Position numbers and translations under genes: made by a program
Shown here: positions 29,925 through 62,766 of the stretch, piece after piece
Layout of the letters: each line of letters starts with the position of its first letter
How positions within the stretch are numbered: the stretch's first letter is position 1
The notes under the pieces: generated by a model
The model's database searches: none
Told to the model about the DNA's origin: nothing
The model's input: only the letters and a program-made list of their open reading frames with translations
Assembly (NCBI GenBank): GCA_000405225.1
Contig: ASMP01000002.1
Location: 1,494 to 65,493 of the forward strand
Length of the DNA stretch: 64,000 nt
Reading direction: 5' to 3'
Origin: Nanoarchaeota archaeon SCGC AAA011-D5
GTDB lineage: Archaea; Nanobdellota; Nanobdellia; Pacearchaeales; GW2011-AR1

Positions 29925-30062
29925 GCCCATGTCGCATAGTGGTATTGCAGCGGATTGCTAACAGGAAGAACCAAGGTTCTTCTATGATGACATCTCCTTT
30001 TTGGAGAAAAGACAAACATCCGCGCCCTTCGGGGTTCGCAGGTTCGATTCCTGCCGTGGGCG
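29925..30062 (+). tRNA. tRNA-Ser (anticodon GCT) with a ~57-nt intron 3' of anticodon-loop position 37
   Basis: Acceptor GCCCATG/CGTGGGC. Anticodon stem GCGGA...TCCGC with loop TTGCTAA interrupted at ~29961-30017. Long variable arm GCCCTTCGGGGTTC. T arm GCAGG-TTCGATT-CCTGC. Discriminator G. TTTTTTAAGC box ~34 nt upstream, and T5 downstream. Confidence 0.8.
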
Positions 30063-42773: not shown

Positions 42774-43172
42774 CTATACGAGTTCTTTTTTTATAGCTTC
42801 TGCCAATGGATAAAAACATGCATTTACAATAGATATGGCATCTTCTGCTTCTGCTTTTGAGGGTATATACCCATAATAATTGATATTATGGCGAATTTTT
42901 CTTAGCGTATCTATAAGTTTAATTGGTCTTTCTGTTTTTACCGGAATTGTTTCAAGTTCTCTTATCTGCTCAATGTGGTCTTTTGAGATAACTCCTTTTG
43001 CAACTAACTGGGCATCCCCAAGCATACGAAAACATTCATAGATATTCCTTATGATAGTAAAAGCGGATTCTTCATTAACTTCTAATCCCAAAGTATAACT
43101 AAGTTCGCGTTCTGCTGCGGTAATAATGCTTAGAGCATTCTTTTTATCCGGGCGTTTTGTATATTCGGTCAT
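42774..43172 (-). CDS. HEPN-domain protein (putative toxin of a HEPN/MNT pair)
   Basis: 132 aa helical protein with LRKIRHNINYYG (HEPN R..N..Y-type motif). 4-nt overlap with the upstream MNT gene. Confidence 0.7.
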   Translation of the reverse strand: MTEYTKRPDKKNALSIITAAERELSYTLGLEVNEESAFTIIRNIYECFRMLGDAQLVAKGVISKDHIEQIRELETIPVKTERPIKLIDTLRKIRHNINYYGYIPSKAEAEDAISIVNACFYPLAEAIKKELV

Positions 43173-43759
43173 GGCCTTACCTCTAAGAATCCATCAAGAA
43201 CAATGCCATTGGCGATATTTGCAAATAAATTCAGATCAATTTTATTCCTGGAAAATATATGCAAATTCACAGGGACATTTTTTCTATATCCCAATTGTTC
43301 AACAATCCCTAATTTTAATATTTTGATTTCGTGATTGTCTAAAGTTTCTACCGCAATGTCAATATCACTTTCATCAGTATCATCACCCCAACGATAACTT
43401 CCAAAAAGGATAGTTGCGCGTGCTTGTGGCACTGCCTTATGGACTGCATCTAAAATCCCTGATTCATAGATCATCTCAAGGTTGTAAGAAATTTTTTTTC
43501 GTATAAATAAAATATTTTTTAAATTGACTGATAGAATCCAAGCTCTCCCAATAATCTCTCTAAAAAGGATGTCTTGCGGTAACAAAGCCTCTACTGCCTG
43601 TTTTGTTGCTGTTTTAGATGAATTAATTGAATAGGCCAATTCTGTAAGTCCTATCTTAGTTCTCGGGAAAGCAGAGAACCATAATAAGCACTTTTGATAT
43701 GCCCGCTCAAGTTCTTCTCTCTTTGCTCCTCTTAATTTTTCTTTCATGTTATTGAACAT
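43169..43759 (-). CDS. minimal nucleotidyltransferase (MNT) with an N-terminal wHTH-like extension
   Basis: ILFGSYRWGDDTDESDIDIAVE (GSx10-ish DxD NTase motif). ~90-aa N-terminal extension. Confidence 0.75.
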   Translation of the reverse strand: MFNNMKEKLRGAKREELERAYQKCLLWFSAFPRTKIGLTELAYSINSSKTATKQAVEALLPQDILFREIIGRAWILSVNLKNILFIRKKISYNLEMIYESGILDAVHKAVPQARATILFGSYRWGDDTDESDIDIAVETLDNHEIKILKLGIVEQLGYRKNVPVNLHIFSRNKIDLNLFANIANGIVLDGFLEVRP

Positions 43760-43833: not shown

Positions 43834-44193
43834 AAGGGAAACCGTGCAAGGAGCTTTTCCAGAAGGAGATTGTTTTAGGAAAGGATTGCTGGTTCTATGT
43901 GAGAAGATATGGTTTTTTATAAAAAACCTTTTAAACCCCTCTTGTTAATTTCACCTATGGAAAAAAAGATGTGATAGAGAGGGCTTTCGTTGCAGGGGTA
44001 TCAACTGCCTTAAGCTACAAAGAAAGGCATCCGAATTCCAATGAATCGGAAGTCATGTCGCATGCCACGAAACAAATGAAAAAAATTATCAGGGAAATTC
44101 AGGAAGACAGCTAAGCAGCTGAGATTGTTTATCCTTGCTTTTTTTTCTTTTTTTCTCGACGACAAGGTATTTTATTTCTCTATTTTTGTGTAA

Positions 44194-44308
44194 GTTCATT
44201 GATTTTAAGTAATGACAAAGAGGGGTTTTTACCGACGATAATCTTTTTCTTCACTTAAAATAAGTAATGACAAAAACTATTTTCTCGACGACAACAATTC
44301 TTTTAAAA
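44194..44308 (+). promoter_or_regulatory. envelope-island promoter/operator cassette, copy 1 (distal + proximal units + TATA-like box)
   Basis: AATGACAAA(44211)-N13-CGACGATAAT, then AATGACAAA(44266)-N11-CGACGACAAC-N4-CTTTTAAA(44300). ATG of the LmbE gene is at 44344. An extra partial CTCGACGACAAGG lies at ~44154. Confidence 0.6.
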
Positions 44309-44343
44309 TCTCAATTCTTCAGTGATAATAAATTTAAGGTGAA

Positions 44344-44973
44344 ATGAAACAAAATATATTAGCTGTGGGAGCGCATCCTGATGATATTGAGCTTGGATGC
44401 GGGGGAACTGTTGCAAAGCATCTAGAGCTAGGAGACAGCATTTATGTGATAATTATGACCAATGGGGAAAACGGAAATCACCCTTCAGATAAATCAGAAT
44501 GCTTGAAGTCGCTTAAAAAGATGGGGATAAAAAAAGAGAATATTATTTTTGGAAATTTTCCTGACGGAGATTTAAGCGATGATAACGGAACTGTAAGCTT
44601 TATCGAAAACCAAATAAAAAAATTTAATATAACAAAGGTTTACACACATAATCCAAATGATAGGCACCAGGATCATAGAAACTGCAGCAATGCCGTGTCC
44701 TCTGCAGCAAGAGATATACCTGAAATTTTATTTTTTGAAGGGCCTTCAACAAAGGTTTCTTTTGAGCCACACTATTTTGTTGAAATATCTGAAAAAAATC
44801 TAAAGAAAAAAATAGATTCGTTGAAGGCTTATAAAACTCAGCTTGCAAAAAATAGCATATTGAATTTAGAATGGGTAAAAAATCTTGCAAAAGTTAATGG
44901 AATGAGATGCAATTCTAAATATTCCGAGGCTTTTGAAATAAATCATATTCTCAAAGAAGGGAAAAATGTCTGA
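44344..44973 (+). CDS. PIG-L/LmbE-family N-acetylglucosaminyl deacetylase
   Basis: AVGAHPDDIELGCGGT and HQDHRN metal-site motifs. Confidence 0.85.
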   Translation: MKQNILAVGAHPDDIELGCGGTVAKHLELGDSIYVIIMTNGENGNHPSDKSECLKSLKKMGIKKENIIFGNFPDGDLSDDNGTVSFIENQIKKFNITKVYTHNPNDRHQDHRNCSNAVSSAARDIPEILFFEGPSTKVSFEPHYFVEISEKNLKKKIDSLKAYKTQLAKNSILNLEWVKNLAKVNGMRCNSKYSEAFEINHILKEGKNV

Positions 44974-45721
44974 AGTAGTAATATCTGCCCATCAACCTAA
45001 TTTTATTCCGTATCTTGGATTTTTTGACAAAATGAAAAAATCAGACATATTTGTTATAAGGGACGATGTGCTATTTTCTTCCGGCAGCGATAGTTTTCAG
45101 CATAGGAACAAAATAAGAATTAACGGGAACAACAACCTTGAAAGTCCGCAATGGAAATGGCTGACATTGCCTATAGAAAAAAAAGGCGATTTAATAAAAA
45201 ATATCAGAATTAAAAGAAATACCCTAAAAAAAAAGGATGACTACAGAAATTCTAAATTTTTCAATGAATATTTCCCTGTATTTGAGCGTATTTTTGACAA
45301 TAGCGATGAGACTCTTTTATCATTGAATATGAAGATTATCAATTTTTTAAAAAAGATTTTTGGGATTGACACAAAAATTGTTTTCGCAAGCTCTTTAGAA
45401 TTGAAATATGGTAAAGATGAAGAAAAAAATGCGTCTGAAGATTTAGCCAAAATATGTGAAGCGTTGGGGGGAAATGTATATCTTTCTGGCTCTGGTGCCA
45501 AGAATTACTTGGATATTGAACCTTTTAGAATGAGAGGAATCAAAGTAATTTTTCAAGATTACAAGCATCCGGTTTATAAACAAAATTATCCCAGATTTTT
45601 ACCAAATTTATCCTCCATTGATGGGCTATTTTGTGCCGGAAGAAAGATTTTGGCGGATATAAATAGATACAAAGAAGAAATCACGAATAAATACAAAGAA
45701 GAAATACTTGTAGGAGCTTAA
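44966..45721 (+). CDS. WbqC-family protein (polysaccharide-locus protein of unknown function)
   Basis: ISAHQPNFIPYLGFFDKMKKSDIFVIRDDV N-terminal signature. 8-nt overlap with the upstream gene. Confidence 0.72.
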   Translation: MSEVVISAHQPNFIPYLGFFDKMKKSDIFVIRDDVLFSSGSDSFQHRNKIRINGNNNLESPQWKWLTLPIEKKGDLIKNIRIKRNTLKKKDDYRNSKFFNEYFPVFERIFDNSDETLLSLNMKIINFLKKIFGIDTKIVFASSLELKYGKDEEKNASEDLAKICEALGGNVYLSGSGAKNYLDIEPFRMRGIKVIFQDYKHPVYKQNYPRFLPNLSSIDGLFCAGRKILADINRYKEEITNKYKEEILVGA

Positions 45722-45727
45722 TTTAAA

Positions 45728-48697
45728 ATGATGAAAATAAAAAAAGGGGCTATATTTTTATTTGTTATTATACTTGGGATTTTATTCTCTTCAACTGTGT
45801 ACTCACAAACAACTGGAAATTATTTTACTGATTTTGAATCTGATCAGGGATGGACTGCGGCCGGATTTGGGCAGGGTAAATTTGAGATAGGGATTCCCGA
45901 AAATTTTTCAAGAAGCAAAGAATGTCAAACAACTTGTTTAGGTACTGGAACATCTCAAGACCATACTCCTGGCGGAACAAAAGCAACGTGTACCAATTTA
46001 AATGGGCATCAGGCAAAATTCGAAAATGTTAATACCAATAATTTGACTTCACCTGTTTATGATTTTAGCGAAAAAACAAATATTTCCTTAGAATTGTGGA
46101 GATTTATGGAAATCGAGGGAGACAATTATGATTTTTGTTATTATCAGTATAAAAATAGTCAAAATGGCAGTTGGCTGAACTTGCAGAAATATGGTAAATC
46201 AAGAATAGATGACGACGCCTGGAAAAGATACACAAAAAATTTAACATCTATGGCTGCTGGAAAAAATTATTTCCAGTTAAGGTTTTATTGCACGACAGAT
46301 TATGGAATTGAGGGTTCTGGTTTGTGCATAGATGATGTTAATATTTCTTGGAATTCTATTATACAAACGCCTAAAATCTGCGGAGATGGAATTGTAAATC
46401 TTCCGGGTGAACAATGTGATGACGGAAACAACGTTAATGGTGACGGATGCAGCAGTATTTGTAAGAATGAAACAACAGAAATATATTTTGTACCTTATAT
46501 GGGAGATATTGACGGGAATATTGACCCGACTTGGTTCTTTTTTTACGAGAAACTAAGAAAATGGCATGATGACCAGAACATCCCTGTTGGTTTAAGTTTT
46601 TATCCTAATACTATGAATAACAATCAATTCAATCAAATTATTGCTGATATGTATAACAGCAAGAATATAGAGCTTTTACTTAAAGGGGAGAGCACAGGAA
46701 CGCCTTTGGACCAGATGAATTACTTTGAAGTAAAGGCGACAATTGAATCGCAACAAAACAAATTTATAAATGAGTTAGAAAAATTAGGTTACAGCAATGT
46801 TCAACCCATTATTTCTTACAATCAGCTTTATGGCAAATTTACTGAGACAATCAGAGATGCTGTGCATGATTTGGGATTTAAAATATATCTCGAGCAGTAT
46901 GTAAGTGAGCATGGTTACATTGATGGTTTACCTGATTTTGATATAACCCAGTATAGTGTGGCTCTTACAAAAAGCGGATTGCCAGGACCTACAGAAACTT
47001 TCAAACAACCGGAAGAGGTTCTCCAAGAATTAATTGAATTTAATCACCCACAATTAATTTATATTAATAATGTTAAAGTTGTTCCGTTATTAGTTCATCA
47101 ACAAGATTTTATGATAGATGAATCTGGTTCAGAGTTGAATCAAACAAAATGGGAGATTTATACAAACTTGTTACTTATGACAAAAGATGATTCCAGAATT
47201 AAAATGATTTTACCTGAAGAAGTTTATGATTTAAGACACCCAACACAGCCAATATTAACTAACTACTCTGTTGAAATTTGCGACTGGCAGGATTGTTATG
47301 TTGGGGCGACTTCTGTTTCAATTGACGATAGTTATAATTCTTGCAGAGAAGAATTAAATAAAAACGGGTTTAAAGGAACTTATTACCTATCTGGAACAAA
47401 TAAATTCACTAATTCTGACTGGAACATGTGGAATAGTATTTATCAAGAAGGACATGAACTTGGACCGCATACTCAAACTCACAAGTGCAATGGTTACAGC
47501 GACTCATTATTAAACAGCGAATTGGGCTCAAATTATAATGACATTTTGACCAATATTAGTGGTATATCCAGCAATGAAATTGTTTCCTTTGCATGGCCCT
47601 GTGGCATTACCAGCCCTTCTATGGAAAGCGTGGCAAGCAATTACGCTCTTTCTTCCAGAGGATACTTTATCAATCAGTTAGAGGATAAAAATCCTGCAAA
47701 TTTTATGAATCTAAAAAGTTTTAACACCCCTCATTATAATGAACCTCGAGACCTTCCTCCAAATTACAAAACTGTTGTAGACTCTGCCGAGTCACAAGGA
47801 AAATGGGCTAATTTAGTCTTTCATAACGAATGCCAAGATGACGGTTCTATTGATTATCTTAAAACAAAAAATGTATGGGTTGCTCCAATAGGGACAGTTG
47901 TTAAGTATATAAAAGAAAGGCAAAACACCCAAATTGTTAATCTTACAGTAAATGGTTCTGTAATAAAATTTAATATTGTTAATAATTTGAACCATAATCT
48001 GTTCAATAAAGAATTATCTTTGAGAATTAATATATCAAAAAAAGTTGAGTTTATAAAAATAAATGGGACTAATAAAAATTTTAATAATGAAAATGGCTCT
48101 GTTATCTTTAATCTGGTTCCTAGTGGAAATGATTTAATTGAAATAAAAACTAATGAAAACGACACAGCACCAATAATTATTTGCGGGAACGGCATTGTTG
48201 AACAGGGGGAACAGTGCGATGATGGAAATGCTGTAAATGGGGATGGGTGCAGTTCCCAATGCAAAATAGAAAATAGCTTATGTCAGTATGCTTCATCAGC
48301 TTCAGGCACATCTCAAAATACCCTTGGCTCTTTGGCCCAATATGCTACAGGAGCTCCGAATGCTCCTTTTGTTGGACAATGTTCTACTTGGAGTGGTTAT
48401 GGTTACGCTTGGAGCCCGAGCAACTGGAATATTAAAGCTAATTTAACTTTGAATTATGCAACTCCTGTTTATGCAAAAAATCTCACAATATTTGGAGATT
48501 TTGATATGTGCTGGAATAGAATAACATTGGCAAACTCGCAAACAGGTCAAAAATTTCAAGTCCTTAATGGGATTCAAAACAGCTGCATTTACACGCAAAC
48601 ATTAGGTGGAAGTTTCCTGGCAGATCAAGTTATTTTAGAGACGTGTGGGTGGGGCTGGAGCTCGACAGATGCTGTTCAGCTGTGCGGAGAAACTTAG
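45728..48697 (+). CDS. secreted multidomain protein: MAM-like domain, two Cys-rich CGDG..E.CDDGN..NGDGCS repeats, NodB/CE4 polysaccharide-deacetylase-like domain, C-terminal Cys-rich beta domain
   Basis: Signal peptide. ..GSGLCIDDVNISW. CGDGIVNLPGEQCDDGNNVNGDGCSSICK and CGNGIVEQGEQCDDGNAVNGDGCSSQCK. NodB motifs SIDDS and GHELGPHTQTH. Confidence 0.7.
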   Translation: MMKIKKGAIFLFVIILGILFSSTVYSQTTGNYFTDFESDQGWTAAGFGQGKFEIGIPENFSRSKECQTTCLGTGTSQDHTPGGTKATCTNLNGHQAKFENVNTNNLTSPVYDFSEKTNISLELWRFMEIEGDNYDFCYYQYKNSQNGSWLNLQKYGKSRIDDDAWKRYTKNLTSMAAGKNYFQLRFYCTTDYGIEGSGLCIDDVNISWNSIIQTPKICGDGIVNLPGEQCDDGNNVNGDGCSSICKNETTEIYFVPYMGDIDGNIDPTWFFFYEKLRKWHDDQNIPVGLSFYPNTMNNNQFNQIIADMYNSKNIELLLKGESTGTPLDQMNYFEVKATIESQQNKFINELEKLGYSNVQPIISYNQLYGKFTETIRDAVHDLGFKIYLEQYVSEHGYIDGLPDFDITQYSVALTKSGLPGPTETFKQPEEVLQELIEFNHPQLIYINNVKVVPLLVHQQDFMIDESGSELNQTKWEIYTNLLLMTKDDSRIKMILPEEVYDLRHPTQPILTNYSVEICDWQDCYVGATSVSIDDSYNSCREELNKNGFKGTYYLSGTNKFTNSDWNMWNSIYQEGHELGPHTQTHKCNGYSDSLLNSELGSNYNDILTNISGISSNEIVSFAWPCGITSPSMESVASNYALSSRGYFINQLEDKNPANFMNLKSFNTPHYNEPRDLPPNYKTVVDSAESQGKWANLVFHNECQDDGSIDYLKTKNVWVAPIGTVVKYIKERQNTQIVNLTVNGSVIKFNIVNNLNHNLFNKELSLRINISKKVEFIKINGTNKNFNNENGSVIFNLVPSGNDLIEIKTNENDTAPIIICGNGIVEQGEQCDDGNAVNGDGCSSQCKIENSLCQYASSASGTSQNTLGSLAQYATGAPNAPFVGQCSTWSGYGYAWSPSNWNIKANLTLNYATPVYAKNLTIFGDFDMCWNRITLANSQTGQKFQVLNGIQNSCIYTQTLGGSFLADQVILETCGWGWSSTDAVQLCGET

Positions 48698-48721
48698 AGC
48701 GTATTTAAGATAACCATAAAG

Positions 48722-48742
48722 AATGAAAATCTTTTTGTCATT
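48722..48742. promoter_or_regulatory. imperfect palindrome built from the cassette half-site (AATGAAAAT-N3-TTTGTCATT) upstream of the GT2 gene
   Basis: gAATGAAAATctTTTTGTCATTttataataaaaacatttaaata. TTTGTCATT is the reverse complement of AATGACAAA. Confidence 0.4.
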
Positions 48743-48774
48743 TTATAATAAAAACATTTAAATATCAAAACCTT

Positions 48775-49986
48775 TTGGGAAATTGCATGAAAGGTCCATT
48801 TTCAATTTGGCCATTTTTTGGTTTAACGCTTTGGATTGATGTGTTTACTCACTTATTGAATACAAATAAAGAAAAAAGAATAAATCCATACAATCCTGTT
48901 AGGGAGATTTCTGTTTTGATTCCATTCCACAAAGAACCTGGGGAATCTGTAAAGAGAACTATTAAGTCTATTTATAAAGAAAAATATCCTGTAAAAAACA
49001 TAATTATCTGTGGAGATTCAGAATCAAGCATAAATGAAGACTCTCTGAAAAAAACTTTTAATCATAAAAATCTGTATTACTTAAAAGTTCCTCATTATTC
49101 GAAGGCAAAAAAAATAAATTATGTTGTCGAAAAATTCTCAAAGAATCTTGGAGAGTTCATTTATACTATAGATTGTGGCGCCAAAATAGAGGAAGGATGC
49201 ATAGAAAAAATGATTTCCTATTTTAGCAATGGTAAGGTTGCTGCCGTCACATCATATGGTAGAGTTAGCGTGCCAAAGAATTTTTTATCCCGCTCTTACT
49301 TCTATGGAAAAGCTTGGATAAATGAGATAGGAAGATTTCGTAAAGGTGCCCAGGAAAAGAGGGGGGCATTATTTGTTATTTGTGGTGCATCTACAATATA
49401 CCGAAAAGAAGTATTAAAAAAAATTCCAATCCCGTATAAAAGTAAAACAGAAGATACTTACTACACTTGGCTGTTGCAACGTAATGGTTTTACAATAAGA
49501 GTTGCTGATGATGCTACTGTCTCTGCTCCTGAAGTTGATGGAAGTGGATTAAAAGGAATCGAAGGTCAGATAAAACAATCATATCGTTGGAGTTCAGGAA
49601 CATTGCAATGTCTTAGTTTAGAAGGCAAAATGATATTCAAAAATAAAAAACTGGCTTATAGTACGCTTTTGCCTGGTTTTATTGAGGCAATTATGTATTC
49701 TGTTCCTTTATTTTTTCTTCCCTTACTTTTTTTTGTTTTTCCTGCATTTGCTCTTGGTTTTTTGATTGGTGATACTGTTTTTTCATTAATTGGAACACTT
49801 ATCTTCATACCAGAGAAGTTCGGAAAAACTTTGCTTCATTATCCCCAGGTTATGTTCTTCAAATATCTAAATGCCGCAATATTTTTCTTTGCAATGATGG
49901 TTGTTGGTTTTCAGGCCATTTTTGGAATGAAAGATAAATGGAATAATGAATGGGTTTCGCCTGATATAATGAGAATCGAAATGTAA
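48775..49986 (+). CDS. processive family-2 beta-glycosyltransferase (NodC/PgaC/chitin-cellulose-synthase-like), multi-TM
   Basis: GT2 motifs VLIPFHKE, IDCGAKI, TEDTYYT, QIKQSYRWSSG (QxxRW). One N-terminal and ~4 C-terminal TM segments. The likely true start is ATG 48787 (track start is TTG). Confidence 0.8.
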   Translation: MGNCMKGPFSIWPFFGLTLWIDVFTHLLNTNKEKRINPYNPVREISVLIPFHKEPGESVKRTIKSIYKEKYPVKNIIICGDSESSINEDSLKKTFNHKNLYYLKVPHYSKAKKINYVVEKFSKNLGEFIYTIDCGAKIEEGCIEKMISYFSNGKVAAVTSYGRVSVPKNFLSRSYFYGKAWINEIGRFRKGAQEKRGALFVICGASTIYRKEVLKKIPIPYKSKTEDTYYTWLLQRNGFTIRVADDATVSAPEVDGSGLKGIEGQIKQSYRWSSGTLQCLSLEGKMIFKNKKLAYSTLLPGFIEAIMYSVPLFFLPLLFFVFPAFALGFLIGDTVFSLIGTLIFIPEKFGKTLLHYPQVMFFKYLNAAIFFFAMMVVGFQAIFGMKDKWNNEWVSPDIMRIEM

Positions 49987-51066
49987 TTATAAATAACTTA
50001 CAGAACTTATTAAGGATTTTTTTATGTAATCAACTTCCTCATTTGTAAGCGAAGGATAAATTGGAATCGAAAGATTTGTATTTTGGGCATGTTCTGTATT
50101 TTTAAAAGTCTTGGGATTTAATCCCAAACATCTGTGCAAGGGCTTGAATACTGGTTGAGATACTATTATTCCTTTTTTTTGTAATTTTTCTTTAAGCGCC
50201 TTAAGCTGGGTGGAATTTTTTGTTCTTATAACATACCTGAATTTTATTTCCCCGTTTATTTTTTTAGGCAGGCCTAAACCGATTCTTGAAAAAGCTTTGT
50301 CATATTCCTTTGCAATTTCCTGCCTCCTTTTTAAGAAATACTCAAGTCTTAATAATTGGCTTAATCCCAATGCTGATTGAATGTCTGTCAGGTCATAATT
50401 ATATGCAATGTTATATTTTTCTTTGTTGTCGTATTGCGTTAAATTATCCAAATTTTTTTTTAATGGCTTTGAATTTGTCAGAACCATGCCCCCGTGTCCT
50501 GTTGAGATGACTTTTGTTGCATAAAATGAGAAGATGCTGAGATTTCCAAAACTTCCAAGCATTTTTCCTTTGTAACTTGCTCCAAGAGACTGCGCGCAAT
50601 CTTCTATGATTGGGATTTTTTTTGAGATTTTTTTTATTTCATGTATGTTTGCAGGAACTCCAAAAAGATGTATGACAATTATTGCCTTCGTTTTTTTTGT
50701 TATAAGAGGTTTTATTGTTTTAGCTGAAATGTTAAAGCCATTGTTTTCAAAATCAGAATCAATATTTGCTAATACTGGCTTTGCGCCGGTGTAATTCACC
50801 GCGCTTAAAACTGATTCACAAACATAACTTGGAAGTATGACTTCATCTCCTTTGCCAACCCCTAAAGAGAGTAAAGCCAAATGCAAGGCAGCTGTGCCCG
50901 AGTTTGTTGCTTTCGCATATTTAACTCCAATAAATTTGCACATTTTATTTTCAAATTTTTTTGTCTTTGGACCTGTGGCATGCATGCCTGATGCTACTTG
51001 TTCTTTAACTGCTAAAATGTCTTCTGCAGAAACAGTTGGTTTTGAATGTGAAATAATTTTAGGCAT
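49987..51066 (-). CDS. DegT/DnrJ/EryC1/StrS-family PLP-dependent sugar aminotransferase
   Basis: NSGTAALHLAL, EDCAQSLGASYKGK, FSFYATKVISTGHGG (PLP Lys). Confidence 0.88.
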   Translation of the reverse strand: MPKIISHSKPTVSAEDILAVKEQVASGMHATGPKTKKFENKMCKFIGVKYAKATNSGTAALHLALLSLGVGKGDEVILPSYVCESVLSAVNYTGAKPVLANIDSDFENNGFNISAKTIKPLITKKTKAIIVIHLFGVPANIHEIKKISKKIPIIEDCAQSLGASYKGKMLGSFGNLSIFSFYATKVISTGHGGMVLTNSKPLKKNLDNLTQYDNKEKYNIAYNYDLTDIQSALGLSQLLRLEYFLKRRQEIAKEYDKAFSRIGLGLPKKINGEIKFRYVIRTKNSTQLKALKEKLQKKGIIVSQPVFKPLHRCLGLNPKTFKNTEHAQNTNLSIPIYPSLTNEEVDYIKKSLISSVSYL

Positions 51067-51095
51067 TTTAGATATTTTGAACGTTTTATATGTTT

Positions 51096-51599
51096 TTACA
51101 CGTTTTGAATTACATCCATAATTCTTGTATTATAAAAATAACTTGCAACGCCATCTTTGCGCGAGTAATCCAATTCTCCTTTCGGAACAAATCCAAGTTT
51201 TGCATAGAACCATACAGCGGGGTTGTCAGCGCGAACCCTGAACATAACGCGTTCAATTCCTTTTTTCAGACTCTTATTAAGAAATGCTCTTAAAAGGCCC
51301 CTCCCAGCAGATTTTACTCTTTTTTCTCTGTCAACAATAATTTTGTTAAGGAAAGCGTGCCCTTCTTTGATTGAACCTATTTGATAACCAATAACACCTC
51401 TGTGATTTAATGCTATATGACTTAATTCCCATTTTCCAGGCAATTCATACATAAGGTTTCCAAGATTCCAGGGCTCATCGCCTATCTCTGTCCAGTTATG
51501 TTCTAATTTCAGTATAGACACTGCTTGATGTAAAGCCATCTGTTTTGTTAAAGGAACTATTTGTAAATCTTCTGGGGTTTGTAAAATTGTATCTACCAT
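51096..51599 (-). CDS. GNAT-family N-acetyltransferase
   Basis: Motif A-like IIVDREKRVKSAGRGLLRAFL and ..FYAKLGF. Confidence 0.72.
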   Translation of the reverse strand: MVDTILQTPEDLQIVPLTKQMALHQAVSILKLEHNWTEIGDEPWNLGNLMYELPGKWELSHIALNHRGVIGYQIGSIKEGHAFLNKIIVDREKRVKSAGRGLLRAFLNKSLKKGIERVMFRVRADNPAVWFYAKLGFVPKGELDYSRKDGVASYFYNTRIMDVIQNV

Positions 51600-51681
51600 G
51601 TAATTTTGGCATAATCCCAGTTTATAATATTTATGATATTGAAGATATTAGATAAAAAACAGAAATCTTTATAACGAAGTT

Positions 51682-52662
51682 TTGATGAAGAACAGGATGA
51701 ATAATAAATCATTGAGTTTAAGAATAATAACAGGCACCTTTATAATTTTGCTTTTGGCTTTTGTGCTGATATTTTTATCAAAATCGTTTTCAAAAGATTC
51801 CACTGAAGATTTCAAAGAAAACTACAAAGAAACAATTACAAGGCCTCTTTTAAACCTGGAAAAAAGCAACGGCATTGTCACAAATATCTGGCTTGAAAAT
51901 GAAGAGCAACTTGAGAAATTTACCCAAGAGGACATAAAATACCTCTTTGTTGACGTAGGAGGCCTGGATTCTCAAGGAAAAATAACAACGCCGGAAAACG
52001 AAATAACGAATTTTCTTTCATTGATAAAAAATTTTGAGGGAAAAAAAGGCCACGACTTCGTTGTTTTGCCTTATACCGAGATTATTATCAATAAGGATTA
52101 CAGCCTTGATTCAGGTATTTTTACAGATAATCTTGTCAAAGAGCATTCAAGACTTGTTGACTTGGGTTTTGACGGAGTTCATATTGATGTCGAGGCAGTT
52201 CCTTTTTCGCAAAGAGATGAATATCTTGAATTTCTAGAAAAGCTGGACAAGTCAATCGGCAATGAAAAATTAATAACTGTTTACGCGGGCTCATATAACG
52301 AAAATCCGAATATATGGGAGTGGGAGCCGGAATTTTACAGAAATGTTGCAAATCGTGTCGACCTTATAACTATTCCCGGTTATGATTTTGGGTTGGAAGA
52401 CGAAGAACAATACAAAAATTATGTCAAAAACCAGATTGAGTTTATTGAAAATAAGGAATGGAACTCAAAATTTATGTTTGCAATTCCGACACATAAAAAA
52501 GAGCCAGAAACAATAGATAATGCATTAGATGCTTTTTCTGATATCAAACTTTCAGAAACTGAAAGCAGGTTTATTGGAATTGCTATTTTTGCGGAATGGA
52601 CTACAGATGAAAAAGAATGGGAAATTTTTGAAAATTATCTTAAAGATGCTCGGAAGATTTAA
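51682..52662 (+). CDS. membrane-anchored protein with a GH18-like (chitinase-like TIM barrel) motif
   Basis: N-terminal TM. FDGVHIDVE resembles the GH18 DxxDxDxE motif, with His at the second Asp position. Confidence 0.45.
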   Translation: MMKNRMNNKSLSLRIITGTFIILLLAFVLIFLSKSFSKDSTEDFKENYKETITRPLLNLEKSNGIVTNIWLENEEQLEKFTQEDIKYLFVDVGGLDSQGKITTPENEITNFLSLIKNFEGKKGHDFVVLPYTEIIINKDYSLDSGIFTDNLVKEHSRLVDLGFDGVHIDVEAVPFSQRDEYLEFLEKLDKSIGNEKLITVYAGSYNENPNIWEWEPEFYRNVANRVDLITIPGYDFGLEDEEQYKNYVKNQIEFIENKEWNSKFMFAIPTHKKEPETIDNALDAFSDIKLSETESRFIGIAIFAEWTTDEKEWEIFENYLKDARKI

Positions 52663-52715
52663 TTTTTTTAAAAAACTATAAGAAAATACCAAAAATTTAA
52701 CCTTTTTTAAGAAAA

Positions 52716-52830
52716 GTTCATTGATTTTAAGTAATGACAAAAAGCCATTTTTATCGACGGTAATTATTCCTTTTCACCAAACGAAAGGAATGACAAAAAC
52801 TATTTTCTCTACGACAATAATACTTTTAAA
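52716..52830 (+). promoter_or_regulatory. envelope-island promoter/operator cassette, copy 2
   Basis: The 26-mer gttcattgattttaagtaatgacaaa is identical to copy 1. AATGACAAA(52733)-N13-CGACGGTAAT, then AATGACAAA(52789)-N11-CTACGACAAT-N4-CTTTTAAA(52823). Confidence 0.6.
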
Positions 52831-53034
52831 GAAAATACTTTTAATCATTTCATGATTATTCATAAGAGAGTAGTGACTGATAAAAGAGCAGCAAACATCT
52901 CTCTGTCAAATTCAAAAGAAACCTCACCAATTCATAGTTATGCATTAAATGTGTATAACACCCGGCAGAGTGAAATTCTCACTCAGCTCAACTTTGTTGG
53001 GTGCCTTGAAGTACTGAAAGGAGGTTATATATAA

Positions 53035-58592: not shown

Positions 58593-58707
58593 TTCATTAG
58601 ACAGGAGTAATGATAAAAAGCCATTTTTGTTGACGGTAATTGTTCCTTTTCATTGAACAAAAGGAATGACAAAAACTATTTTGTCGATGACAATAATGCT
58701 TTTAAAG
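58592..58707 (+). promoter_or_regulatory. envelope-island promoter/operator cassette, copy 3
   Basis: AATGATAAA(58609)-N13-TGACGGTAAT, then AATGACAAA(58665)-N11-CGATGACAAT-N4-CTTTTAAA(58699). ATG is at 58766. Confidence 0.6.
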
Positions 58708-58765
58708 AAACGGGTTTTGAAGAGTCTAGGTGATAATAAGAGAGCTGAAAGGAGGTTATATATAA

Positions 58766-59218
58766 ATGAAAAAACTTTTACTTTTTTGGGTGATGTTTGG
58801 TGTTCTTATTAGTATGTCAAGTTCTGTTCTTGCTGTTAATCAGGGGCTGAATGTAACAATTGGTGAAGACATTCATCTTTTGATTAATCCTGATACAGTT
58901 GATTTCGGAACAAGAGTACCTGGAACTGGTTATTCTGCATTAAACGGACCCATAACATTTGATGCTACCGGAAGTAATGTTGATGTAACTGTAACAGTTT
59001 CAGCTGTAACAGGATTCCCTTTTGATAGCGCTACATTGCTTTTAGATGGAGATAGTACTCCAGTAGGAAAATCTTGGCTTTTAGTATGTGAAACTCCCCT
59101 TACAGTATGCACATATGATGTTGCAAGCACTGTGCCAACATTAGATATTCCAACAGGAGCTTCACAAGGAAACCATGTAGGAACAATAACATACACAGTA
59201 ACAGGCCCATCGCCATAA
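58766..59218 (+). CDS. small secreted beta-rich protein (150 aa), candidate filament/major subunit
   Basis: Sec signal ..MSSSVLAV. The mature ~125 aa is ~50% identical by eye to the C-terminal domain of the next gene. Conserved Cys pair. Ends TITYTVTGPSP. Confidence 0.6.
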   Translation: MKKLLLFWVMFGVLISMSSSVLAVNQGLNVTIGEDIHLLINPDTVDFGTRVPGTGYSALNGPITFDATGSNVDVTVTVSAVTGFPFDSATLLLDGDSTPVGKSWLLVCETPLTVCTYDVASTVPTLDIPTGASQGNHVGTITYTVTGPSP

Positions 59219-61985: not shown

Positions 61986-62056
61986 ATGCCAGATTAATTT
62001 CAAATTTTTAATTTCGGCCTTTTTTTCCTTTGTTTTCTTTATTTTCACCAAAAAGA

Positions 62057-62101
62057 AGTAATGACAAAAACTATTTTCTCGACGACAGCAATACTTAAAA
62101 A
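62057..62101 (+). promoter_or_regulatory. envelope-island promoter/operator cassette, copy 4 (proximal unit only)
   Basis: AATGACAAA(62060)-N11-CGACGACAGC-N4-CTTAAAAA(62094). ATG is at 62125. Confidence 0.55.
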
Positions 62102-62124
62102 GGGTAACTACTCTGGAATTACTA

Positions 62125-62766
62125 ATGATTAAAAGATTAGGCGTTATGGTGGTAATTTTATTCATTGTGCTGGTTAGCGTGGGGGCTGTCAGCGCCATTA
62201 CAGGAGCCATGGGAAACGCAAGGATGATACTTTATCCAGAGGTAAACGGACTGACATATACTGAAATTGAAAAAAGTCTCCTGATAAAGAACGTGAATAA
62301 TGAGTCCATCAACATCACTCTTCAAATTGATGAAGAAACAGGAAAATTCATTGAACTGATTGATGAAAGCTTTATTTTGGAACCAAAAACTGAAAAAAAA
62401 GCGCAATTTATTGTTAAGGTAAAAGAAGAAGGAACTTACAAAGGAAAAATAGCTGTTTTTTTCTCTGGTTTGGGAAAGCAAAAAGCAGGGGTTGCTTTGT
62501 CCTCTGAAGTTATTGTAATAGCAAGAAAGGACCAAGGAAGCAGAGGCGGAGGCGGTGATTCCGGAGGGGTTGGGCAGGAAGACACAGGAGGAGTAATTAG
62601 CGACGAAAGTGGAGAAAAGAAGAGCTCTTTAACAACTTCAGGATTGCTGATTGTCCCTGTTCTTGTCTTGTCAATTATTCTTGTAGCTTTGATGATTATC
62701 ATGATGAAAAAAAGAAAAAAAGGCGATAAAAGGAGGAAGAAAGTAAATGCAAGGAGAAAAAAATGA
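62125..62766 (+). CDS. signal peptide + single beta-sandwich + Gly-rich linker + C-terminal TM anchor with a highly basic tail
   Basis: ..LIKNVNNESINITLQID.., GTYKGKIAVFF, GSRGGGGDSGG, LLIVPVLVLSIILVALMIIMMKKRKKGDKRRKK. Same architecture as 60326..61060. Confidence 0.55.
   Translation: MIKRLGVMVVILFIVLVSVGAVSAITGAMGNARMILYPEVNGLTYTEIEKSLLIKNVNNESINITLQIDEETGKFIELIDESFILEPKTEKKAQFIVKVKEEGTYKGKIAVFFSGLGKQKAGVALSSEVIVIARKDQGSRGGGGDSGGVGQEDTGGVISDESGEKKSSLTTSGLLIVPVLVLSIILVALMIIMMKKRKKGDKRRKKVNARRKK

Follow-up and report, generated by a model that had tools for sequence, protein, structure and literature searches.

Introduction

The described systems closest to the locus reported here join a membrane glycosyltransferase of family 2 (GT2) to enzymes that modify or cut its product. 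In the bacterial Pga and Ica systems for poly-N-acetylglucosamine (PNAG), PgaABCD and IcaADBC, the GT2 stands beside a de-N-acetylase of carbohydrate esterase family 4 (CE4) and a hydrolase activity. Chitin synthase and deacetylase are paired in fungi and oomycetes, and NodC and NodB in rhizobia. The cellulose synthase BcsA and the hyaluronan synthases (HAS) need about six membrane helices for their channel. DPANN archaea are ultra-small, mostly uncultured and in many cases host-dependent, and the composition of their surface and the way they attach are largely unknown. Here, we analyze positions 44344-52662 of a 64,000-nt window (the whole stretch of DNA under study; motifs and residues are numbered per window protein). 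This locus encodes a GT2 of the synthase type, a 989-aa CE4 protein, an anchored protein resembling glycoside hydrolase family 18 (GH18) and four enzymes of the LmbE, WbqC, DegT and GNAT families.

Judged by its sequences, the module resembles chitin synthase plus deacetylase pairs as well as the exopolysaccharide systems of bacteria that depend on a synthase (Pga/Ica, Bcs), and it falls outside the curated equivalog families. With Pga/Ica it shares the GT2 beside a CE4 enzyme and a hydrolase, and PgaC/IcaA is the top hidden Markov model (HMM) for its GT2; with the chitin synthase and NodC/NodB systems it shares a GT2 with ED/TED and QxxRW motifs, a deacetylase and GH18 partners. Its distinguishing features are a minimal synthase, the lack of a co-subunit, the GH18-like hydrolase, a protein that combines a domain termed A here with Cys-rich and CE4 domains, and an obligatory DegT/GNAT/LmbE/WbqC cassette. 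The conservation of this gene set across DPANN archaea is the main new result, and no account of such a module in DPANN was found in the searchable literature. We read it as a module for a synthase-dependent, chitin-like surface glycan based on N-acetylhexosamine (HexNAc), which would probably be N-modified and would be deacetylated and trimmed outside the cell. We give this reading an even chance of being correct.

A gene set conserved across DPANN archaea

The window proteins served as tblastn queries against 21 species-representative loci that had been found via the GT2. Near the GT2 gene lie CE4 in 18 of these loci, DegT in 16, GNAT in 15, LmbE in 14 and WbqC and the GH18-like gene in 12 each, and several of the missing genes are due to contig ends. 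This association is far beyond chance, because the same set adjoins the GT2 orthologue in most of the 21 DPANN loci. Recurrence in related metagenome-assembled genomes (MAGs), which the sequence-only reading had named as a check on its proposal, is thus observed at the level of species. The MAGs are labelled as Pacearchaeota, Woesearchaeota, Nanoarchaeota or Nanoarchaeia, and Aenigmatarchaeota; two further loci carry the labels Desulfobacterales and Methanosarcinales and may be mis-binned. The association holds down to 33% GT2 identity with a shuffled gene order. In most relatives all genes are co-directional, in the order LmbE-WbqC-GNAT::DegT-CE4-(GH18-like)-GT2. The window differs from this order, since GNAT and DegT are inverted and lie downstream of the GT2.

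Gene fusions link the members of the set further. GNAT is fused to the N-terminus of DegT in loci L001 and L003 and to the C-terminus of the GT2 in P0078, P0079 and L021, and a single 711-aa open reading frame (ORF) in L021 unites CE4 with the GH18-like domain. The latter fusion mirrors the CE4 plus hydrolase architecture of PgaB. Locus L021 also encodes a canonical GH18 of 469 aa (Pfam 126 bits). Synteny and fusions together argue for one functional module, and they back it much more strongly than could be known from the single locus. The variant module in L021 (897-9339), on a contig binned as Desulfobacterales, has GT2::GNAT, DegT, CE4::GH18-like, LmbE, the canonical GH18 and a stand-alone domain A protein; this contig may be mis-binned DPANN DNA or the result of horizontal transfer.

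The seven ORFs listed by the sequence-only reading are all in place, and its family assignments all hold up, those of the four smaller enzymes LmbE/PIG-L, WbqC, DegT and GNAT by Pfam (Table 1). Hydrophobic segments occur only in the 989-aa CE4 protein, the GH18-like protein and the GT2, and LmbE, WbqC, DegT and GNAT have none. By this pattern the four enzymes would be cytoplasmic, the GT2 would sit in the membrane, and the other two proteins would be anchored and extracellular. Among the other genes of the window are those for aEF-1alpha, ArgRS, TrmB and a D-aminoacyl-tRNA deacylase of the archaeal type, all of them archaeal housekeeping genes. The close homologues all stem from Pacearchaeota, Nanoarchaeota or Woesearchaeota MAGs. 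The earlier description of the source as a reduced DPANN-type archaeon is warranted on both counts.

A GT2 of the synthase type by sequence and predicted fold

The homologues of the GT2 begin at MKGPFS, so that the ATG at 48787 is probably its true start. The motifs IDCGAK (aa 132-137), KTEDT (aa 224-228) and QSYRW (aa 268-272) supply the key residues D133, E226-D227 (TED) and Q268/R271/W272 (QSYRW), to which the conserved D81 is added. Seven residues (K110, N115, D133, E226, D227, R271 and W272) do not vary in an alignment of 91 GT2 sequences, and Q268 varies hardly at all, so that both catalytic elements, (T)ED and QxxRW, are preserved. In Pfam the protein matches Glycos_transf_2, Glyco_trans_2_3, Glyco_tranf_2_3 and Glyco_transf_21. 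The best curated HMMs are PgaC/IcaA (82.7 bits), the XrtG-associated GT2 (40.7), NodC (33.1) and CelA (26.8). PgaC/IcaA is also the top curated model for every nearer or farther relative tested (60-193 bits), and the dolichol-phosphate glycosyltransferase models give only weak matches. In a search of PDB sequences BcsA alone aligns across residues 41-347, through TED and QxxRW and into the membrane part.

An AlphaFold2 (AF2) model built from the 91-sequence alignment has a predicted local distance difference test score (pLDDT) of 93.3 and a predicted template modelling score (pTM) of 0.91. Its top 20 Foldseek matches are the hyaluronan synthases of Chlorella virus (CvHAS) and Xenopus (XlHAS1) and BcsA (E 2e-15 to 1e-12, TM-score ~0.6), followed by chitin synthases, with Chs1 structures at E 2e-11. 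By E-value HAS and BcsA are the best structural matches, and BcsA can be aligned through TED, QxxRW and the first membrane helices. Unlike these enzymes, the GT2 has fewer membrane helices, no PilZ/c-di-GMP module and has lost the second Asp of DxD. Chitin synthases and NodC differ from it by a sequence identity of only ~15%, and chitin synthases are also much larger. A grouping with non-processive DPM1 or AglD types, the outcome that would have spoken against the sequence-only reading, was not seen in the curated HMMs, in the BcsA-wide alignment or among the best structural matches by E-value. The catalytic type of the GT2 is established as far as sequence and predicted fold can do so. By analogy with these synthases, the enzyme would act processively and export its chain.

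Relatives of the GT2 form 74 clusters at 49-88% identity, all from DPANN-type MAGs or metagenomes. Next to them are five at 34-40% identity, two of which carry the C-terminal GNAT fusion. The nearest bacterial outgroups (22-28% identity) have chitin-synthase Pfam matches and in several cases an N-terminal CE4 fusion. A second GT2 paralogue of 35% identity is found at L020:6478-7659, in the MAG of locus L012 (Nanoarchaeia), which also has the full module. This paralogue is without any partner gene and adjoins an MgtE transporter, and the GT2 clade thus includes stand-alone members.

Extracellular CE4 and GH18-like partners

The 989-aa protein had been described as secreted and as bearing NodB/CE4 motifs, and its hydrophobic N-terminus and a Pfam match above the gathering cutoff agree with this. 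SIDDS lies at aa 531-535, HTQTH at aa 581-585, the motif-3 residues at R644-G-Y646 and H699 within LVFH. In the CE4 alignment of 17 loci D533, H576, H581, H585, R644, G645, Y646, W693, H699 and several cysteines are invariant, with D534 kept in 90% of the sequences or more. By this alignment no part of the CE4 residue set is missing: the catalytic base, the Asp-His-His triad for the metal, the Arg of motif 3 and the His of motif 5 are all there. The sequence-only reading had considered that metal and catalytic residues might be missing here; they are present and, apart from D534, invariant in all 17 loci.

Three modules are common to the 989-aa protein and its 750-aa orthologues: domain A, the Cys-rich CGWGW domain, and CE4 with its beta-sandwich. 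Domain A carries invariant residues of its own, in GDIDG and HQQDF. Single-sequence and profile searches of the PDB gave nothing significant for it, and Pfam gave no assignment, with just marginal Polysacc_deac_1 matches in 3 of 16 members. The DUF2334 family was considered and rejected, since the DUF2334 matches in homologues fall in another region. An exhaustive HMMER scan of 1.84 billion representatives returned only 73 clusters, and in 21 of 41 scanned representatives domain A is fused to CE4. Domain A could represent a new carbohydrate-active domain, either catalytic or binding. The CGWGW domain of ~140 aa, which has CGWGW...C at its end and no family assignment, may be a carbohydrate-binding module. 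It occurs in one to four copies per orthologue, and its place shifts between lineages; in relatives it is internal and sometimes duplicated. Copies in L007 lie at 784-1203 and 2077-2496.

The N-terminal jelly-roll of the window protein is also found in the metagenomic protein P0164, where it is fused to a canonical GH18, a hint that the jelly-roll binds the same glycan. The CGWGW domain was ruled out as the cause of this match, the common part being the jelly-roll. Some of the orthologous CE4 proteins P0140-P0147 carry a dockerin and, at the N-terminus, a domain of the AhpC/redoxin or thioredoxin kind, which suggests extracellular disulfide chemistry or attachment to a scaffold.

The GH18-like gene likely starts at 51685. 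Its product had been noted as a membrane-anchored protein with a GH18-like FDGVHIDVE motif; the motif is in place (aa 163-171), and in the AF2 model (pLDDT 93.2) an N-terminal membrane helix precedes an alpha/beta barrel of eight strands, with GH18 enzymes as top Foldseek matches. The family is restricted to DPANN and comprises 38 clusters, two of which reach Pfam GH18 (PF00704), and its profile matches the YdhD/SleL/YaaH group of GH18 (E 5e-6). Invariant in the family are D169-x-E171, Y234-D235 and W306; the first two align with the DxE and the YD of GH18, and W306 would be its beta8 Trp.

The pairing of CE4 and GH18-like proteins beside a synthase mirrors the PgaB, BcsZ and chitin deacetylase partners of other systems. 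GH18 enzymes need the 2-acetamido group and typically act on beta-1,4 linkages of N-acetylglucosamine (GlcNAc). The GH18-type partners and the canonical GH18 in L021 therefore favour a beta-1,4-linked, chitin- or chitosan-like product over a PNAG-like one, despite PgaC/IcaA being the top HMM. In Pga/Ica the hydrolase is of the GH153 or GH20 type, a difference that likewise argues for beta-1,4 over beta-1,6 linkages. Thus, the analogy to PgaC/PgaB covers the logic of the system, not its chemistry.

Enzymes of these families might instead serve catabolism or attack, with the CE4 and GH18-like proteins degrading environmental chitin or a GlcNAc-containing host wall and LmbE acting as a diacetylchitobiose-type deacetylase, as in the chitin pathway of Thermococcus. 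The match of LmbE to archaeal diacetylchitobiose deacetylases (Dac; E 4e-7), the likeness of the GH18-like protein to the cortex-lytic SleL/YaaH/YdhD group and the canonical GH18 of L021 would fit such a role. We consider it very unlikely, as GT2, DegT, GNAT and WbqC are biosynthetic in type and are the most tightly linked or fused genes, the module has no transporter, kinase, glucosaminidase or deaminase, and LmbE is nearer to BshB-type enzymes than to Dac.

A predicted cytoplasmic cassette for amino-sugar tailoring

LmbE has the zinc motifs AHPDD (aa 10-14) and HQDH (aa 108-111). Its closest PDB entries are BshB-type GlcNAc-malate deacetylases (E 3e-12), ahead of the diacetylchitobiose deacetylases, and in NCBIfam the equivalog cutoffs of BshB1, BshB2 and MshB are not reached. 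For DegT the best NCBIfam models are PseC (230 bits), LegC-like (211) and ArnB (204), all below their cutoffs; the likely pyridoxal phosphate (PLP) lysine lies in SFYATK (aa 180-185). WbqC is without a PDB relative, and the literature search turned up no characterised member of the family. A link between wbq genes and an N-acetylglycyl amino sugar in E. coli O121 was considered but found no confirmation, and nothing here rests on it.

Bacterial contexts of WbqC were found by tblastn of WbqC against plasmids. The B. thuringiensis plasmid pHS18-1 has sugar dehydrogenase, DegT, epimerase/dehydratase, DegT, GNAT, WbqC and PIG-L in a row. A Mariluticola plasmid has PIG-L and WbqC inside a pseB-pseC-pseF-pseG-(pseI-like) cluster, and the Rhizobium plasmid pRL3b1 has DegT-WbqC...GNAT-methyltransferase-GT. 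The recurrence of DegT, GNAT and PIG-L beside WbqC in bacterial glycan loci identifies LmbE, WbqC, DegT and GNAT as a recurrent amino-sugar tailoring cassette. The DPANN module has the same four families, with a DegT that is most PseC-like. Unlike it, the bacterial cassettes include a dehydratase or dehydrogenase (and PseG/I/F), and they use GT4 or Wzx-type machinery where the DPANN module has a synthase-type GT2. Pga/Ica systems, in turn, lack these four cytoplasmic enzymes. Since the cassette recurs in bacterial pseudaminic-acid-type and other glycan loci, the sugar of the module is probably not plain GlcNAc. For the uncharacterised WbqC family, the association with DegT, GNAT and LmbE provides a defined genetic context in bacteria and archaea.

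The cassette also bears on a Nod-factor-like product. A NodC-sized GT2 would then make short chito-oligosaccharides as a signal or anchor glycan, LmbE would free an amine in the manner of NodB, and WbqC and GNAT would re-acylate it like NodA. NodC resembles the 403-aa GT2 in size and in having an N-terminal helix and about three C-terminal helices, and it is among the best HMMs of the GT2. Among the obligatory partners in the module are a cytoplasmic deacetylase and enzymes that handle acyl groups, and the position of PIG-L and WbqC inside a bacterial pseudaminic-acid cluster suggests a logic of deacetylation followed by reacylation. However, the NodC model scores 33 bits against a cutoff of 550, the module has no NodA-like gene, and its cytoplasmic deacetylase is LmbE and not a NodB-type CE4. 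The extracellular CE4 and GH18-like proteins with their carbohydrate-binding-type modules better suit a polymeric surface substrate. We therefore regard an oligosaccharide of the Nod type as quite unlikely.

A proposed route to a surface polymer

For the chitin-like surface glycan that we favour, the following route can be proposed. DegT and GNAT would convert a keto-sugar nucleotide, supplied from elsewhere in the genome, into an acetamido sugar. LmbE would take off an N-acetyl group in the cytoplasm, and WbqC would probably install another N-substituent, acting on the freed amine or at a neighbouring step, so that the four enzymes might deliver a tailored nucleotide sugar or a primer. At the membrane, the GT2, with its active site of the HAS/BcsA/NodC/PgaC type, would build a chain from UDP-HexNAc and move it out of the cell. 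There the anchored CE4 protein would strip N-acetyl groups from part of the chain, and the GH18-like hydrolase, likewise anchored, would cut or shorten the chain on the surface.

Several observations weigh against this reading. The GT2 reaches no curated equivalog cutoff among the NCBIfam models; for PgaC/IcaA (TIGR03937) its 82.7 bits compare with a cutoff of 422.3. Its DxD motif retains D133 but not the second Asp, which is replaced by G in the window GT2 and by N, R or K elsewhere in the DPANN clade; an Asp at this place is confined to bacteria and the relatives of 35% identity. Predicted membrane helices are the N-terminal one and those at 291-313, 315-344 and 356-382, that is 3-4 helices. 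The GT2::GNAT fusions point to a C-terminus in the cytoplasm, and thus probably only two helices after the catalytic domain span the membrane. When all ORFs of 19 neighbourhoods were clustered, there was no PgaD/IcaD-like or other small conserved membrane partner, no dehydratase or dehydrogenase that could feed DegT, no transporter and no other conserved neighbour. In L001 and L003 the GT2 is followed by ORFs of 85-90 aa that encode soluble, mutually unrelated proteins. The 326-aa GH18-like protein of the window has no Pfam match and does not attain the GH18 cutoff. Its family does not conserve the first Asp residues of DxxDxDxE, and in place of the middle Asp, a variable position among the family members, the window protein has His. 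Finally, the reading rests on genes of uncultured organisms, whose functions beyond family, fold and residue conservation are predicted.

The membrane topology and part of the structural evidence would suit a non-processive, lipid-directed GT2. Such an enzyme would add one or a few HexNAc residues to polyprenyl or dolichyl phosphate or to a membrane lipid, as PcManGT, HpnI and ceramide glucosyltransferase do. LmbE would then de-N-acetylate lipid-linked GlcNAc, following the logic of PIG-L and HpnK, and WbqC, DegT and GNAT would elaborate it to a glycolipid or to an N-glycan or anchor precursor, with no free polymer. The highest TM-score of the GT2 model, a further point against the polymer, is indeed to PcManGT of Pyrobaculum calidifontis (6yv7; 0.65 query-normalised, 0.75 target-normalised), described as an archaeal mannosyltransferase that depends on Dol-P and forms a 'half tunnel' of three helices. 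The fold of this archaeal protein is of a minimal 'cellulose-synthase-like' kind, and its membrane helices number three, close to the small helix number of our GT2. Glyco_transf_21 is at the Pfam threshold in the window GT2 and most homologues, the GT2 profile matches ceramide glucosyltransferase over residues 11-179 (E 1e-8), LmbE is nearest to deacetylases of small GlcNAc conjugates, and the GT2::GNAT fusion puts the next tailoring step on the cytoplasmic face. Still, PcManGT, dolichol-phosphate mannose synthase (DPMS) and ceramide glucosyltransferase, like chondroitin synthase, align in sequence only to the N-terminal, nucleotide-binding half of the GT2, whereas the alignment to BcsA continues into the membrane region, and the best Foldseek E-values belong to processive synthases. 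Unlike PcManGT, the DPANN GT2 has retained QxxRW, and its gene is linked to those of extracellular enzymes for HexNAc processing. A lipid-directed GT2 would leave the near-obligatory extracellular CE4, the GH18-like hydrolase and the one canonical GH18 unexplained. We hold this alternative to be unlikely but not negligible; more generally, a lipid-linked or oligosaccharide product in place of a polymer is possible.

The sequence-only reading had proposed that the locus makes and trims a partly de-N-acetylated GlcNAc-type exopolymer, with a processive GT2 and a CE4 enzyme paired as in PNAG synthesis. The module, the synthase-type GT2, the CE4 enzyme and the logic of their pairing stand, and of the processive-synthase motifs TED and QxxRW were borne out, while its 'DxD-like' element holds only for the first Asp. 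PNAG-type beta-1,6 chemistry and a plain GlcNAc product are less likely, and neither a PgaC/IcaA equivalog nor a PgaD/IcaD-like subunit was found; as a further difference from Pga/Ica, the module has no porin. The proposal could be upheld only in part because no equivalog cutoff is met, the helices number 3-4 and the PgaD/IcaD-like partner is absent, and also because the GH18-type partners point away from PNAG and the tailoring cassette had not been integrated. The matrix or attachment role given to the polymer is pure inference.

In its widest form, which we put forward only tentatively, the chitin-like reading would mean that Pace-, Woese-, Nano- and Aenigmatarchaeota build a chitin- or chitosan-like, partly de-N-acetylated and N-modified wall or attachment layer by means of a minimal 3-4-helix synthase and a dedicated extracellular CE4/GH18-like complex. 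If true, it would give Archaea their first polymer system of the chitin type that depends on a synthase, and a candidate for the material that fastens ultra-small cells to their hosts. The module predicts a concrete, testable surface polymer in several DPANN lineages and names the enzymes for assay, and with its GT2, a synthase that is minimal by nature, one could ask for the smallest number of membrane helices that still allows polymer export.

Gene layout and upstream control

The features of the locus are collected in Table 1.

Table 1. Features of the locus, with positions in the 64,000-nt window and residues of the 989-aa protein where these apply
Feature	Window positions	Strand	Residues	Evidence
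Upstream control region of the LmbE-WbqC-CE4-GT2 unit	44140-44343	+		Repeats and TATA-like box
LmbE/PIG-L zinc deacetylase, 209 aa	44344-44973	+		Pfam PIG-L, 84.3 bits (cutoff 28.2)
WbqC-family protein, 251 aa	44966-45721	+		Pfam WbqC PF08889, 182.5 bits (cutoff 21.3)
989-aa multidomain protein, secreted or anchored	45728-48697	+		Pfam, hydrophobicity, alignments
Signal or anchor of the 989-aa protein			1-28	N-terminal hydrophobic segment
Jelly-roll resembling 'choice-of-anchor J' in the 989-aa protein	45818-46360		~30-210	Motif DFCYYQYK
DUF4215 Cys-rich repeats of the 989-aa protein			215-246 and 819-850	
Domain A of the 989-aa protein	46478-47257		251-510	GDIDG, HQQDF
CE4 catalytic domain of the 989-aa protein	47258-47950	+	511-740, with beta-sandwich to ~810	Polysacc_deac_1, 31.2 bits (cutoff 23.1)
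Cys-rich CGWGW domain of the 989-aa protein	48278-48697		851-989	
Membrane GT2, synthase type, 403 aa	48775-49986	+		Pfam, NCBIfam, AF2, Foldseek
DegT/PseC-like PLP sugar aminotransferase, 359 aa	49987-51066	-		Pfam, 292 bits
GNAT N-acetyltransferase, 167 aa	51096-51599	-		Pfam Acetyltransf_1
A+T-rich divergent intergenic region, 82 bp, between GNAT-DegT (-) and GH18-like gene (+)	51600-51681	.		Sequence read
GH18-like (beta/alpha)8 protein, N-terminally membrane-anchored, 326 aa	51682-52662	+		Profile, AF2, Foldseek

The region ahead of LmbE contains repeated AAGTAATGACAAA / TTTTCTCGACGACAA units and, ~40 nt 5' of the ATG, a TATA-like TTTTAAA box. It carries AATGACAAAAACTATTTTCTC inside a conserved block of ~110 nt, with a half-repeat 5' of it and the TTTTAAA box 3'. 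The 21-mer AATGACAAAAACTATTTT[C/G]TC has exactly four copies in the window, at 44266, 52789, 58665 and 62060, against 0.03 expected, and half-repeats AAGTAATGACAAA lie ~55 nt upstream of the copies. The ~110-nt block stands ahead of four units on the + strand (44140-44343, 52690-52880, 58593-58768 and 61986-62127). The other three units under the 21-mer encode secreted or surface-type proteins (beta-helix, Big_13 and similar). As an observation, the cassette operator that had been described as shared with surface-protein operons is borne out by these four exact copies; from the sequence, we infer that the block acts as an operator or promoter. Since the control cassette is common to the operon and the neighbouring surface-protein operons, expression of the module is probably part of a cell-surface regulon. 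No copy of the 21-mer or the block was found in 30 related loci, which marks it as a genome-specific regulon signal. The divergent intergenic region between the GNAT and GH18-like genes presumably holds two promoters.

Directly upstream of the operon, at 42774-43759 on the - strand, lie a nucleotidyltransferase gene (Polbeta/NTP_transf_2) and an overlapping 132-aa gene, a pair that looks like a minimal nucleotidyltransferase/HEPN-type arrangement. A similar Polbeta gene is also found near the module in L001. Elsewhere in the window, Rfam gives a 138-nt tRNA match at 29925-30062 that ARAGORN does not call, consistent with an intron-containing archaeal tRNA.

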